Assembly: GCF_006345805.1 (NCBI RefSeq)
Contig: NW_021833927.1
Coordinates: 1 to 57,836, forward strand
DNA: 57,836 nucleotides
Source: Octopus sinensis
Taxonomy: Eukaryota
Reading direction: 5' to 3'
The notes under the pieces were generated by a model, which was not told the origin of the DNA, ran no database searches, and worked only from the letters and a program-made list of their open reading frames with translations. Below, one piece after another: positions 34,921-42,699 of the stretch (position 1 is the stretch's first letter; each line of letters starts with the position of its first letter). Both the position numbers and the translations under genes were made by a program.

Positions 34921-36815
34921 TTAGGTTTAAGTTTGCGTTTAGGTTTAGGTTTAGGTTTAGGGTTAGGGTTAGGATTAAGGTTAGGGTTAAGTTTAGGATT
35001 AGGGTTAGGTTTAGAGTTAGGGGTTATGGGTTAGGGTTTAGGGTTAGTGTTAGGGTTAGTGTTAGGGTTCGGTTTAGGGTCAGGTTTAGGGTTAGGGTAA
35101 GGGTTAGGTTTAGGTTTAGGTTAAGTTTAGGTTTAGGGTTATGGTTAGGGTTAGGGTTAGTGTTAATGTTAGGGTTTGGGTTAGGTTTAGTGTTAGGGTT
35201 TGGTTTTAGGGTTAGCGTTAGGGTTAGGGTTAGGGGTTAGCGTTAAGGGTTAGGGTTATTGATAGTTTCATCCGACGTGCTTTAATGGCCTTCCACTTAT
35301 CGGTCTAAACATAACTAGAATTACATAAATACCTTACGAATACAACGTGTTAACTGATTTTTAGAATATAGATGTTTGATAAGGTTAACAAAATTACAAA
35401 TGGAAATGTCTTTTATTTCACACCTTTGTGCCACCATTTTTAAGATGATCAATTTTCAGATTTAAAATGCTAGCTGACTGATAATGAGAGTATGTTTATG
35501 AAAGATTTCAGAAATCACAAACCAATACAAACATGTCAAAATTCTGCTATTAGATTATAGTTATGAGACCAAAAAACTTTTCAATAAAAACATTAACAAA
35601 ATTGCAATTTCTTTAAACGGTTCAGTTACTTATCAGTTCTGTAACATGTTCTTCACGAATATTAATACGATTATATTTATCATAAAGATTACTGAAATCA
35701 CAAAACTGTTCCAGATACAATCTTGAAAATATGAACAATATAGCAAGTAAAAATTCCTTGTTTTTCAGCGTACATATTTGTGACTCTTTAGAATAATAAA
35801 CATTAGCCGATAAATATTAAGACAGAATGTGCTAAAATATTGCAAATAAGCATAATAACGTGATAAAAAATGCAATATCGAAACGATTTTAACAACGATG
35901 TGTTGAAACATTGATAATAAGCTTGAAAATGTGTCCAAAATTGCAAATGCAAATTTCTTATTTTTGGTGATAAAATAATAACGTTTTGTTAAAAATAATA
36001 TCTGATTGATAATATTTAATAAAGAGTTCAGAAATCACAAGATTTCTCACAATTCAAATGATTTACTAAGCTTGAAAATATGAACAATGTTGCATATATA
36101 AGTTTCTTATTCCTCAGTGTACATTTGTGACATTTTGTGACATTTGTGACATTTTTGTGAGAAACACTTTTTAGACTAATATTTTGCTATATGTTAGCCG
36201 ATTATATTTACCAAAGACATACATCACAACGTGAACAAAAATGCAATATCGAAACGATTTTAACAAAGATGTGTTAAAATGTTGTTAATAAGCTTGAAAA
36301 TGTGTCCAAAATTGCAAATGCAAATTTCGTTTTTTGTGACAAAATAATAACGTTTTGTTAAATATATGCTTGAGTAAGAATGATTTACTAAGCTTAAAAA
36401 TATGAACAGTGTTGCATATGGAAGTTTCTTATTCTTTAGTGTACATTTAACATATTTGTGACATTTTTGTAAGAAACACTTTTCAGACTAATAGTTTGCT
36501 ATATATGTTAGCCGATTATATTTATCTACGACATACATCACAAAGGTTTTCGGAAAAAAAAAATTTGTCAAAATATTGCAGATAAGCATGAAAACGTGAA
36601 TGGCTGAGTATCACGATTTGTTAATAATAAGCACTTTTCAGACTAAAAACGTTTTGTTAAATACATCCTAGCTGATTGATAAATTAAGAATATTAATCAA
36701 AGATTTCAGAAATCACAAAATTTTTCACAACACAAACATGCAAGTGCACATGTTTTCAAGCTTATTAACATGCGCACTAACGATTTCATAGTTAGTGCTG
36801 TGTTACGCCCTCCAA

Positions 36816-36845
36816 GGTAAGGGGTTAGAGTTAATGGTTAGGGTT
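36816..36845 (+). repeat. Short degenerate TTAGGG tract inside the spacer
   Basis: GGTAAGGGGTTAGAGTTAATGGTTAGGGTT. Confidence 0.75.
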
Positions 36846-37358
36846 TCCATATGCAACATTGTTCATATTTTCAAGCTTAGTAAATCATTTGTATTGTGAG
36901 GAATCTTGTTATTTCTGAACTTAACAAAAGGCTCTTATTCTCTCAGAAAAAACAAGAAATTCGCATTTGCAATTTTGGACACATTTTAAAGCTTATTAAA
37001 CGGTTCAGTTACATTTTGGTTCTATAACATGTTCTCAAAGATTACTGAAGTCACAAAACTGCTCACGGTGCTAGCTTAAAAATGTAAACAGTATAGCAAG
37101 TACAAATTATATGTTTTTTAGCGTACATATTTAAGACTCTTTAGATTATTAAACAATAGCCGATAATTATTAAGACAAAATATGTCAAAATATTACAAAA
37201 AAGCATGAAAACGTGAACAAAATTGCAATATCGAAACGATTTTAACCACAATTTGTTGAAAAATTGATAGAAAACAAAATGTGAAAGTATTGCAATTAAC
37301 CATGCAGTTGAATATCGAAACAATTTCATGGTAAGTCCTGCATCACGCCTTTCACTCA

Positions 37359-37572
37359 TTAGGGTTAAGTTTAGGGTTCGAGTTAGGGTTGTCGGTTAGC
37401 AGGGTTAGGGTTAGGATTAGGGTTGGGTGTTAGGTGTTTGTTTTAAGGTTTATTATTAGGGTTAGGGTTTAGGTTTTGAGGTTAGCGGAGTTGCGTTAGG
37501 GTAATATATACGGTTAGGGTTGGTGTTAGGGTTAAGGTTAGGGTAAATTTTTAGCGGTTAATGTCAGGGTTA
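37359..37572 (+). repeat. ~214-bp degenerate TTAGGG tract inside the spacer
   Basis: Directly visible. Confidence 0.9.
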
Positions 37573-38978
37573 TTAGTCGAAACGCTTTCATAGTCAGTGC
37601 TGTAACACTCTGCAAACTTAACCACAAATACATAAATATCATACGAATACATTTTAGCTGATTCTTACAGTATAGAAGTTTAATAATGTGAACAAAATTG
37701 CAAATGGAAATTTTTTGTTATTTTTAAAACATTTAAGAGACTATTGTTTTAGAAAAACACTTTTGTGACTAAAAAGTGTTTATATATATGCTAGCTGATT
37801 GATATTAGTATATTTATAAAAGATTTTAGAAATTACAATACTCCTTAGAATACAAACATGTCAAAATTTAACACATTTATGACATTTGAAATAATAAGAT
37901 TTTTAGAAAACGAAATGTGTGAAAATAAGCATCAAAACATGAACAAAAGTGAACTTTCTTTAAACGGTTCTGTAACATGTTCTTTACAACTATTAGTGCG
38001 ATTACTGAAATCACAGAACTGCTCAAGATACAATCTTAATGTGAACAATATAACAAGTATACATTTCTTGTTATTCCAGAATAGAAAACGAGAACAAAAT
38101 TGCAATATGGAAACGATTTAAATGTGACTAAAATTGCAAATAAAAATTTGTTATTTTCTGTAACAAAATAATAACGTTTTGTTAAATATATGCTTGATAT
38201 TTATTAAAAACATACATCTAAAAACTTTTCAGAAAATAAAATGTGTCAAAGTATTGCAGATAAGCATAAAAACGTCAACAAAGTTGTAAGCATAATTTTG
38301 AAACATAAATATAAATATAAATTATAGAATAAATACGTTGGCTAAAAACGTTTTTTAAATATATGCTAGCTGATTGAAAATTAGAAAATATTTATCAGAT
38401 TTTAGAAATTACAAGATTTCTCACAAGATAAAAATGTCAAAATTGTGCTAAGCTTCGTGTATTTTCAAAATAAGAGATAGCTGAAATATGCAAAGAAATT
38501 GCAATTTTGCCTTTTTGTTTTCTGAAACGTTTTGTGGTTTCATAACTATAATCTTACATTTTCTCACAAAACTGTCATAAACATGTTAATAGATCACTGA
38601 AAATTTGAAAAGGATTTCTGAAATCTTTCATAAATATACTCTTGTATATCAGCTCGCAGAGAAAACATTTTTAGTCTGAAAAGTGTATATCTATAAAATT
38701 GTGTCATTAATGAGTTAATAAAAACAAGGAATTTCCATTTGCAATTTCGTTCACCTTATGAAACTTATCTATATTTTAACAAATCGGCTAAGATGTTGTA
38801 TTCGTATGGTATTTCTGTATTTCTGTTTATGTTTGCAAAAACGAGTGGAAGGTCTGTTACAACACCGACTGTGAAGGGCGTGATAGAGCACCAACATTGC
38901 AGTTGAATACAACTGCATGCTCAATTGCAATATTTTGACATATTTTGTTTTGATAAATATTCTCTTTAACAAAACGTT

Positions 38979-41062: not shown

Positions 41063-41074
41063 GGGGTGGAGCTC
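41063..41074 (+). promoter_or_regulatory. Polypurine-tract-like plus-strand primer
   Basis: GGGGTGGAGCTC directly precedes the 3' LTR. Confidence 0.7.
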
Positions 41075-41631
41075 TGTAGTGATCCTATACAACGGCGCGC
41101 GCTCGCGCACCGTCCATTTGTATTTCGCGCATGCGGGGTTGGTGCTTTCACCACCGGAAGAAGAACCCCTTTTGCCTACGTAGCAGTTAGCCGAGGCAAG
41201 GGGATCGTAAGACGTTGACCACCAGCGTCCAGCAAGCAGCGACTTGAGACAAAAGCGACCGAAGGTACAACACGTATATTTCTCTCTGTCCGAACTTGAT
41301 TCTAGCAGCAGCTTTACCAAAAGGCCTTTAACCAAATTGTTGCAGACCACATCTTCTCCCTGTTCCGGACGCCATCTTTGACCAGTGTCGTTTTGCATTT
41401 GAACACTTTCTTATTTTACAGCGATAAGGTTCAGCACTGACACAGTTATACCAAAGGGATACCAGATAACCACTTATTGTTACTGTTACCACATTAGAGA
41501 ATATATATCTTTTACGTCTGCGTCTTGTTGTTTCTGACTGGTAGAGAATCTGGATTATTAAAGCAACGGCTAGTGATTGCCTCTTGTACCCCGAAAGTAC
41601 AAGAGAAGATATATTCACTAAGTTCGTTTCA
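41075..41631 (+). repeat. 3' LTR (557 bp)
   Basis: Offset 2096 from the 5' LTR; ORF-track peptides at 39232-39522 and 41328-41618 are identical. Confidence 0.95.
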
Positions 41632-42242
41632 CGTTTTTAGTCTCAAAACCGCTCAAAAGTGCTTGTTTGTCTTGTGAGAAATTTCGTGATATCTGAAATC
41701 TTTGATAAATAATCAGCTAGGATATATTTAACAAAACGTTTTTAGCCTGAAAAGTGCTTATCCTGAGAATCAGCCAACGTTGATATGGTATTTATATTTA
41801 TGTATGTATGTATGCTTGCAATTTTCTTTACATTTTCATGCAATATTTCTACATGTATGTCTTTGATATTTCTCATGTATGTCTTTGATAAATATAATCC
41901 GCTAACATATATAGCAAAATATTAGTCTGGAAAGTGATTCTCACAAATGTGTTAATCGTACACTGAAGAATGAGAAGTATATGCAATATAGTTCATATTT
42001 TTAAGCTTAGTAAAACATTTGTATTTTAAGAAATCTTGTTTATTAAATATTATCAATCAGTTAGCATATATTTAACAAAACGTAGGAAAGCAAATTTTGA
42101 CATGTTTGTAGTGTGAGAAGTTTTCTGATTTCTGAAATCTTGTGATCAATCAGCTAGCATATAAAACAATTTTAGTCTCAAAAGTGTATATTTGTAAAAT
42201 TGTGTCACAAAAAAAAACAAGAAATTTCCATTTGCAATTTTG
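41632..42242 (-). repeat. AT-rich modular repeat, reverse orientation (spacer, right of the LTR element)
   Basis: Reverse-complement modules: ATTTCTGAAATCTT, ATCAATCAGCTAGCAT, ATTTCCATTTGCAATTTTG (42224-42242). Confidence 0.85.
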
Positions 42243-42699
42243 AGAGTGTCCGGAAGTAAAGACTATTAAATTTACATAGGAAAAAATTTTCTTGAAAGGC
42301 CAGCATATTAAAATATACATTTAAATGTTAAATTTATAAACAAAATAAAGCAGGGCAAAAGAAAGAATATCTAATGCCAGATATGCCGAAATGGACTTAA
42401 TTATCAAACCCCAAACTTAATCCTAGCCCTCACCGTAGCCCTAAACCAAACTCTAAACATAACCCTAACACTAAACCTAAACTTAAACCTAACCCTAACA
42501 CAAATCCTAACACTAAACCTAACACTACCCCTAAACCTTACCCTAAACCTAACCCTAATTCCAACACTAACTTAACTTAACTTAACCGTAAATCTAACCC
42601 TAACATAAGCCGAAACCTAAGACTAACCCAAAGCCTAAGCCTAACCATAAATATAACCCTAACATTACGCCAAAACCTAAGACTAGCCCTAAACCTAAA

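Follow-up and report, generated by a model that had tools for sequence, protein, structure and literature searches.

The region analyzed here, a stretch of 57,836 nucleotides from Octopus sinensis (contig NW_021833927.1; hereafter the window), is probably degenerate telomeric satellite, forming an interstitial block that encloses a scrambled AT-rich patch in which one TTAGGG tract was inserted a single time by telomerase during break repair and was then inherited through duplications. According to this best reading, the region is old subtelomere-type satellite DNA that would have been healed repeatedly by telomerase and then duplicated, inverted and amplified. Its main components are:

13578 to 35258, plus strand: left array of degenerate (TTAGGG)n over 21.7 kb, in which 32-41% of the hexamers are perfect
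35259 to 42240, no strand assigned: AT-rich patch, 27% GC excluding the tracts and the LTR element
38979 to 41632, plus strand: non-coding LTR retroelement inside the patch, with identical 558-bp LTRs, TG...CA ends, a 4-bp target duplication, a PBS and a purine tract
42407 to 57836, minus strand: right degenerate telomeric array (CCCTAA on the plus strand), more than 15.4 kb, reaching the contig end

The G-strand 3' ends of both arrays face internal DNA, with 17-45% perfect hexamers; internal location and degenerate repeats are thus combined, as is characteristic of an interstitial telomeric sequence at a repaired break. The left array contains internal duplications at offsets of about 0.8, 1.2, 1.7 and 2.6 kb, and its start adjoins ordinary LINE/SINE-rich DNA, where the reverse transcriptase fragments are pieces of APE-type LINEs. 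Close to its junction, the right array has a higher-order repeat of about 985 bp. The patch itself consists of scrambled, diverged monomers of about 150-170 bp in both orientations, plus retrozyme-derived pieces. Its monomers appear to be related to a 141-bp satellite, because 11-mers are shared (1.2% versus at most 0.3% in controls) and patch DNA borders the arrays; the profile of this satellite matches the window weakly (best E 8e-4). The longest ORF within or overlapping the LTR insert measures 177 aa, an ORF scan found no long ORF in 38.9-41.7 kb, and the remaining patch is repeat-derived by similarity. As a Helenus/Ajax element, in so far as the available part of PMC10886601 describes them, the insert does not fit: no tRNA gene was found.

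The head-to-head arrangement of the arrays could suggest the scar of an end-to-end fusion, i.e. two former telomeres with a subtelomeric patch trapped between them. The telomere-like polarity in which the left array begins would agree with this, as would the lack of informative 45-mers common to both arrays (0 found) and the situation at a related locus, C1, where a 20-kb array adjoins the same patch family beside a scaffold gap. However, both G-strands have the patch at their distal (3') end, a place where fused telomeres would meet repeat against repeat; degeneracy in the right array peaks at its junction and declines farther out; and the patch orientation flips near 38.5 kb, so that an inversion accounts for the polarity of the arrays. 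We consider a fusion unlikely; it is compatible with the best explanation, yet unnecessary to it. Less probable still is an assembly artefact, i.e. a chimeric or palindromic long read. The contig is unplaced and ends in repeats, and the comparison with other runs reaches only to 38990; but pieces from two other studies cover 35267-38990 nearly throughout with 0-7 differences, the arrays are not mirror copies, and the two patch arms are just 60-80% alike. The 45-mer comparison also rejects a palindromic read or a recent inverted duplication of the arrays. Placing the contig by means of a DUF1075 retrocopy failed: other copies have only 0.7-1.4 kb in common.

Within the patch, the argument centers on a slot with the structure hammerhead remnant - (TTAGGG)n - hammerhead remnant, in which two copies of one motif of about 55 bp bracket the tract. 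The relevant features are:

37313 to 37361, minus strand: hammerhead remnant M1, cut in the catalytic core at the tract start (covariance model E 1e-4)
37359 to 37572, plus strand: 214-bp degenerate TTAGGG tract in the slot
37575 to 37620, minus strand: hammerhead remnant M2 (covariance model E 1e-3)
35257 to 35306, minus strand (RNA sense minus): decayed hammerhead remnant of the M2 type, no covariance-model match
36776 to 36815, minus strand: truncated M1-like hammerhead remnant, preceding the 30-bp tract
36816 to 36845, plus strand: 30-bp degenerate TTAGGG tract, continuing into inverted patch DNA and not into the 3' flank of the slot
38827 to 38915, plus strand (RNA sense plus): 'empty' unit, M2 and M1 halves fused

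The slot is common to the 214-bp tract, the 3' end of the left array and five copies at C1 with tracts of 28-41 bp. Contigs from three of four other runs bridge the 214-bp tract and both of its flanks at identical length. A contig from one run, guessed to be RNA, spans 37258-37690, which is no evidence of transcription. At M2, 0-4 nt separate the 3' junction of the slot from the predicted self-cleavage site; on the RNA strand, the CCCTAA repeats stand directly 3' of the ribozyme remnant at this junction only. The G-strand of the left array meets the remnant at 35257-35306 about at the predicted cleavage site as well, and the 270-300 bp or so 3' of this array are homologous to the sequence 3' of the 214-bp tract (local score 239 versus a shuffle maximum of 56-63).

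An earlier note on this DNA had reported a 25-bp motif immediately ahead of the 30-bp and 214-bp tracts. The motif does precede both, at 36785 and 37325, i.e. 4 bp from the reported 36781 and 37321; its second copy, 3' of the tracts (37575-37620, 35257-35306), had gone unnoticed. Assigning the 30-bp tract to the same slot does not hold, since only its 5' flank corresponds, and approximately: on the 3' side, 36849-37007 matches 35904-36097 in reverse. The tract-less minus-strand unit is real (38577-38915), but the fused halves make it a likely later deletion derivative of a filled slot. Each of the six hammerhead copies in the window has a truncation or mutation that affects the core or stem I, and three score 27-40 bits compared with up to 67 for copies at the locus C12; the window remnants are predicted to be inactive. 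A genome-wide pattern for the 5' junction of the slot gave 23 matches versus 11 in the control: six are true slot copies (five at C1, one here) and 17 are unrelated or tract-less. The slot was thus found at two loci only. M1 copies and M2 copies carry shared derived letters, and the common position of the slot is likely due to descent from one event.

The motif is what remains, in antisense, of a type I hammerhead-like fold from a dispersed retrozyme/Penelope-type element of about 490 nt. The core of a type I hammerhead reads CUGANGA...GAAA and is accompanied by an NUH triplet. This core and the cleavage triplet are described in the literature (PMC4209133, PMC6155905). The parent family, with 462 first-look candidates, shows a fixed 3' end next to (TA)n, more-than-unit tandem copies and inverted partial copies. 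From cleavage site to cleavage site, the natural unit measures 489 nt (33% GC, fold z -4.4); no ORF belonging to it was seen, in line with a small non-coding low-GC retrozyme unit (without LTR, PBS or PPT). In an alignment of 33 copies, core and three helices are recovered with 88% of cells paired, compared with 21-42% in slid controls; conservation reaches at least 90% in most columns of the core and is lower at C3 and G8, and the cleavage triplet is AUA. Two-sided changes occur at nine of 17 pairs, and none of 500 shuffles reached the covariation score; covariation events are tallied by lineage, and both relatedness and CpG decay can inflate them. The covariance model also finds the sister families B and D (92% paired, in a model-fitted alignment); family D has the same hammerhead core, and its ribozyme 23-mer has 719 exact matches genome-wide. 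Parent elements A and D both display a type I hammerhead core with three helices, and self-cleavage is predicted for them. When seven loci were searched against Rfam, none of the 84 matches at E<=5 was to a hammerhead family, only miRNA matches driven by AT repeats being returned; the long helix II may explain why the hammerhead was missed. Minimum free energy folding of ten single copies was weak, with z above -2 in eight and below -2 in two. Copies with a single ribozyme and no tract are the common state, and at C12 tandem ribozymes about 200 bp apart persist. No autonomous partner or linked reverse transcriptase was found near 66 loci; PLE-like ORF fragments occur near a few of them, and the two inspected stop short of the element.

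The earlier note had further regarded a module as the mark of the slot. Its copies and the neighboring spacer are:

35389 to 35544, plus strand: module, a single diverged satellite-like monomer
37693 to 37868, plus strand: module, second copy
38577 to 38749, minus strand: module, inverted copy
42093 to 42242, minus strand: module adjoining the right-hand spacer
42241 to 42399, minus strand (RNA sense minus): fragment of family D, a second dispersed hammerhead-bearing element, ribozyme absent (E 4e-29)

The reported arrays and module positions are confirmed: the module starts at 35389, 37693 and 42242 (minus strand), which puts it 130, 120 and about 163 bp away from the ends of the tracts. It does not mark the slot, since a profile built from four of the window copies has 11 matches in the window and 25 in two tract-less stretches of C12 (0 in the reversed control); judging from these matches, it is a diverged satellite-like monomer that mostly occurs without TTAGGG. 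The right-hand spacer (163 bp) was considered as part of the slot and rejected: against the slot spacer it scores 20-21, with shuffle means of 21-24. The right array joins family D, at a short in-register homology, and not the slot.

These results bear on the proposal of a discrete mobile or composite element whose expandable TTAGGG slot (0 bp to more than 20 kb) seeds satellites, or of a sequence-specific telomere-addition site. What stands is a repeat with TTAGGG of variable length at one position: the same junctions enclose tracts of 28-41 bp and 214 bp, and the 3' one alone also borders the 21.7-kb array, at two loci in all; but these are shared by descent, and the right array lies outside. 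Neither sharp termini nor target-site duplications were seen, and no discrete mobile unit was found, because homology runs on for 550-990 bp and fades gradually. Tract-less single-ribozyme copies are the commonest, and tract length is constant between runs. The comparison with Helentrons or MITEs is likewise not borne out, as no such termini were seen and the motif is a hammerhead remnant. A Helitron origin was rejected: an ORF fragment that we take to be Helitron-like lies 2.3 kb from a tract at the locus C7, but nothing comparable was seen at the other loci. It had been suggested to examine whether the junctions scatter along the unit, and largely they do. At least five other TTAGGG junctions with patch-type DNA lie at other positions and in both polarities: the C7 tracts, about 48, 415 and 340 bp long, occupy a different site in opposite polarity, and C1 has its array and further tracts at other sites. 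No tract abuts patch DNA at 15 of 18 related loci. The proposal is already largely refuted by this scatter in position and polarity, and we regard it as very improbable.

The closeness of the slot's 3' junction to the cleavage site calls for another alternative. The exposed 3' end of a telomeric G-strand might have primed reverse transcription of self-cleaved retrozyme RNA, which would set the junction at the cleavage site; an earlier cDNA, truncated in the ribozyme core, would have been capped by telomerase, and the resulting cDNA-TTAGGG-cDNA chain would later have decayed and been amplified. The region would then be the fossil of a terminon-like telomere capture by a retrozyme in an animal whose telomeres are canonical TTAGGG, and would have seeded the subtelomeric satellite family and the 21.7-kb array. 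CCCTAA 3' of the ribozyme is the polarity of terminons in the available part of PMC6431247, both giant arrays adjoin hammerhead-element DNA, and tracts follow the hammerhead-bearing subfamily, abutting patch DNA at three of four hammerhead-bearing loci versus none of 14 others. Furthermore, a 3' junction no more than about 4 nt away from the cleavage site is not predicted by plain break repair, a coincidence of roughly 1 in 30 by a post-hoc estimate. Nevertheless, all M2 junctions apparently stem from a single event. The genome-wide family A cleavage-site junction pattern was found in this window only, and neither the family D pattern nor an intact hammerhead core followed by CCCTAA had any match (0 each); these patterns are exact, so that decayed junctions escape them. 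Polarity is not uniform: the C7 and right-array junctions are opposite to the slot and 55-80 nt from the cleavage site. The parent element favors (TA)n and has no telomere-complementary tail after its ribozyme, nor was a linked reverse transcriptase found. Such a capture is therefore doubtful, both as a mechanism and as the origin of the satellite family and array.

The preferred reading, telomerase-type break repair followed by duplication, can be arranged in steps. A dispersed non-coding hammerhead element contributed a piece of about 150 bp to an AT-rich satellite-like family, as its remnants in the patch show. This hammerhead-bearing subfamily would have lain at or near chromosome ends and broken repeatedly, and telomerase would have added TTAGGG at short in-register homologies (judged by eye), producing several unrelated junctions in both polarities. 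One such repair may have duplicated the ribozyme core of about 50 bp, or replaced the 200 bp or so between tandem ribozymes like those at C12. Segmental duplication, inversion and deletion would then have carried the junction to C1 and this contig and yielded the 'empty' copy, a step partly visible in the copies themselves. Tract length would have shifted by slippage and unequal exchange while the giant arrays grew by internal duplication, for which the left array offers partial evidence; this array may owe its slot 3' junction to expansion combined with rearrangement, or to a crossover that joined two TTAGGG tracts. For interstitial telomeric sequences (ITS), the available part of PMC7215372 describes such in-register homology, accompanied by a deletion or a duplication, as the signature. 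Against this reading, no empty orthologous allele was found in the other runs compared, paralogous single- and tandem-ribozyme copies serving as proxies, so that insertion by telomerase is a presumed mechanism; the subtelomeric past is likewise presumed, the contig being unplaced.

Mobile-element fragments also feed tandem or satellite families in Helentron- and MITE-seeded satellites, as here; the donor in our case is a hammerhead-bearing retroelement, and in the slot unit neither subterminal inverted repeats nor hairpin ends were identified. The parent element resembles metazoan non-LTR retrozymes and non-autonomous Penelope-like (pLTR-derived) elements in its non-coding unit of 33% GC, type I hammerhead, long helix II and short helix III, as well as in tandem copies of more than one unit, inverted copies truncated at the 5' end, (TA)n targets and a strongly self-paired monomer (PMC7229834, PMC4209133, bioRxiv 10.64898/2026.07.22.740005); in Xenopus tropicalis, multimers are reported in the preprint to be enriched at chromosome ends or centres. 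Its unit of about 490 nt slightly exceeds the quoted 150-450 bp, the parent is known from sequence alone, and the window retains only decayed pieces of about 60-150 bp in a satellite-like matrix interrupted by TTAGGG. With short and heterochromatic ITS, as portrayed in the accessible text of PMC7215372 and PMC6410037, the region shares internal TTAGGG, in-register homology, flanking deletion, duplication or inversion, head-to-head arrangements, and large degenerate blocks that border on satellite DNA and mobile elements; unlike them, it has a junction pair that sits between two ribozyme remnants and was spread by segmental duplication. Terminons and Athena, endonuclease-deficient Penelope-like elements, have reverse-complement telomeric repeats 3' of a hammerhead and truncated copies capped by telomeres, going by the available parts of PMC6431247 and PMC8557442; judged against these parts, our case differs in the absence of an RT ORF, an element-encoded telomeric tail and uniform polarity, in going back to a single event, and in a parent dispersed in (TA)n and not restricted to telomeres.

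The hammerhead element families brought to light, with hundreds of copies, were missed by Rfam here; descriptions for this kind of genome were not found in the literature searched, and supplementary retrozyme/PLE consensus lists may include them. What the hammerhead ribozyme does in Penelope-like elements is called unclear in the available parts of PMC8557442 and PMC7761336. If the terminon-like capture were true, the window would hold the first sequence evidence found that, at telomeres, reverse transcription of a retrozyme is primed at a site defined by self-cleavage of its hammerhead. According to the best reading, it is a worked example of how a fragment of a ribozyme-bearing retroelement, a satellite family and telomerase-type repair may together give rise to an interstitial telomeric block.

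The contig is unplaced in the 2.7-Gb genome and is laid out as follows.

Features of the contig
1-13577: LINE/SINE-rich DNA
13578-35258: left array, degenerate (TTAGGG)n
between the arrays: AT-rich interval of 7.1 kb
38979-41632: non-coding LTR element interrupting the AT-rich interval, with identical (100%) 558-bp LTRs and a 4-bp target duplication
42407 to contig end: right array, (CCCTAA)n

The G-strand 3' ends of both arrays face the AT-rich interval; because both point inward, neither array is a chromosome end here. That the paired arrays are a fusion scar is unlikely, and less likely than an origin from breaks healed with telomeric repeats. 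Perfect hexamers make up 17-45% of the arrays. Each array has its own internal duplications and no informative 45-mer is common to both, which rules out a mirror artefact. The part of the right array nearest to the junction (42407-46500) is a higher-order repeat of ~985 bp that includes (AAT)n/(GAT)n inserts and so forms a complex satellite out of telomeric repeats. At its 5' end, the left array directly adjoins a SINE-like repeat (13090-13577), a similar end point of which adjoins AT-rich patch DNA in another stretch (L056, ~7201). The LTR element is young; its primer-binding site resembles the 3' end of tRNA-Trp, and a diverged relative lies near a telomeric locus on scaffold C7 (L050 from about 3856). 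The intact, intronless DUF1075 (FAM162-like) ORF at 8516-8962 (+) is a processed retrocopy whose parent gene, on scaffold C21, has introns; at least four more retrocopies exist elsewhere (97-98% identity). Frameshifted LINE fragments with reverse transcriptase domains lie at 3039-5658 (+) and 10562-13098 (-); one has a PHD-like finger and one an APE endonuclease.

The 25-bp motif that the earlier note placed before two telomeric tracts occurs both before and after tracts, and its profile finds 35 copies in the stretches searched (reversed control: 0). In reverse complement it has the layout of a type I hammerhead ribozyme: a 5-bp stem I, then CUGAYGA, a helix II of 4+4 bp interrupted by a 2x2 internal loop, then GAAA, a short stem III and the triplet AUA, after which cleavage is predicted. 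Of the 36 copies found, three from the patch were set aside; in the remaining 33, all dispersed, 88% of cells are paired and 9 of 17 pairs show two-sided changes, a covariation inflated by the relatedness of the sequences. Slid controls reach 21-42%. A covariance model built from these copies retrieves sister families whose stems differ in sequence and compensate (24 matches at 20 loci; in the fitted alignment, 92% paired). Two results count against the hammerhead reading: Rfam gives no hammerhead match on the 7 loci scanned, and single-copy folds are weak.

The hammerhead is carried by a dispersed element, of which a first look gave 462 candidates and 40 were scored. Its 3' end is fixed beside (TA)n, its start varies from copy to copy, and there are tandems of more than one unit as well as inverted tails. 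One natural cleavage-to-cleavage unit measures 489 nt (33% GC, z -4.4), and a copy with an intact unit lies on scaffold C8 (L124). In its fixed 3' end, tandems, inverted tails and small low-GC unit it resembles non-LTR retrozymes and the terminal repeats of Penelope-like elements, as characterized in PMC4209133, PMC7229834, PMC8557442 and bioRxiv 10.64898/2026.07.22.740005. The patch, i.e. the scrambled DNA between the arrays, retains about positions 131-289 of this element. The 163-bp flank of the right array, which in the earlier note separates that array from the module, is unrelated to the other flanks (scores 20-21, shuffle level); it is a piece of a second hammerhead family, D, which the array joins about 75 nt from the cleavage site and in opposite polarity. 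A 23-mer of the family D ribozyme has 719 exact matches in the genome (stretches L216-L226 examined). Helix II of this family natively holds CUAACCCU, which resembles a telomerase template sequence and could act as a TTAGGG seed.

On the G-strand, the slot consists of a motif remnant cut in the catalytic core (M1), the TTAGGG tract, a second remnant beginning at about the predicted cleavage site (M2), 80 bp of the element, and the satellite-like module. The module distances (130, 120 and ~163 bp) and motif positions reported earlier are correct within 4 bp. The proposal of one fixed slot holds for the 3' flanks of the left array, whose only slot junction is that at M2, and of the 214-bp tract, which are homologous as far as the junction itself (score 239; at most 56-63 after shuffling). 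The module itself does not mark the slot: the window holds 11 of these diverged monomers, and 25 lie in two stretches of scaffold C12 without TTAGGG. Slot copies occur in the window (214 bp) and five times on scaffold C1 (28, 28, 28, 28 and 41 bp; counted by regex, two being identical neighbours). M1 copies have derived letters in common, as do M2 copies, and the slots are related by descent. Searches turned up no third slot locus, and two is a lower bound. Homology between slot copies fades across 550-990 bp without sharp ends; a mobile unit with an expandable TTAGGG slot, as proposed earlier, is very unlikely, and less likely than the healing of breaks.

The tract-less unit (38827-38915) is present; as it holds the inner half of each remnant, M2 and M1, it appears to be the product of a later deletion. 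Where a tract is missing, the motif is usually intact, single or in tandem; on C12, two full ribozymes succeed one another in the order of the slot, separated by about 200 bp that hold no tract. Contigs of other sequencing runs span 35267-38990 with few differences, three of four bridge the 214-bp tract at the same length, and one run (X6) lacks 38833-38896 (64 bp), i.e. most of the double-ribozyme remnant. An assembly artefact is the least probable of the explanations, and again less likely than healed breaks.

Junctions are not confined to one position, contrary to the earlier note; on C7, on C1 and at the right array they lie at different sites and in both polarities. On C7, three tracts of about 48, 415 and 340 bp occupy another site and run in opposite polarity to the slot; beyond the last of them come 1 kb of TG-rich sequence (L050:441-1450) and, further on (about 2750-3850), a Helitron-like Rep fragment. 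On C1, a 20-kb CCCTAA array runs from a scaffold gap and joins the module (L102:5086-5195 to L042:5211; C1:75.755-75.775 Mb), and further short tracts lie at other sites. The gap sits mid-way in the largest scaffold and the array has true-telomere polarity; it is possibly a mis-scaffolded chromosome end. Tracts abut patch or satellite DNA in three of four hammerhead-bearing loci and in none of 14 others (Fisher p 0.005). The comparison takes in the 18 out of 22 loci in which at least 200 bp of such DNA could be recognised; these loci are related to one another, most were covered over 10-30 kb, and the window is one of the three with abutting tracts. Several non-slot junctions have 2-5 in-register bases (read by eye), like the interstitial telomeric insertions at repaired breaks described in PMC7215372; classes of interstitial telomeric sequences are treated in PMC6410037.

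The module family adjoins arrays of a 141-bp AT-rich satellite, a 26-mer of which has 564 exact matches in the genome; the patch has 1.2% of its 11-mers in common with the satellite (controls at most 0.3%). These arrays (C17:52.75 and 58.98 Mb, C25:28.79 Mb, C9924, C9307, C9626, C1317, C12644, C12456) often end in gaps or contig ends, with scrambled inverted monomers at their borders, and the repeat is a candidate centromeric or subtelomeric satellite. A GC-richer 185-bp satellite is interleaved with it in both orientations (L055:139-3801 and 5709-6692).

Priming at the telomere, as in terminons (Athena-type Penelope-like elements), would agree with an M2 junction 0-4 nt from the cleavage site, in the polarity relative to telomeric repeats given for terminons in PMC6431247. 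However, the M2 junctions go back to a single event, no further junction of this kind matched any of three exact patterns run genome-wide, and there are junctions of opposite polarity; we regard this origin as improbable.

Retrozyme-like elements, satellite DNA and interstitial telomeric blocks are known kinds of sequence. Terminons apart, no description of hammerhead remnants on both sides of a TTAGGG tract was found in the literature searched, which includes PMC7761336, PMC6155905 and PMC10886601 and covers terminons through PMC6431247 and PMC8557442. Probably, an AT-rich satellite-like family near chromosome ends took up a fragment of a retrozyme; breaks in this family would have been repeatedly healed with TTAGGG, and one junction healed in this way, lying between two copies of the ribozyme, would then have been duplicated, inverted, deleted and expanded. 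The sequences show the element, the common descent of the slots and the duplications inside the arrays; we infer that telomerase acted on these sequences and that they have a subtelomeric past.
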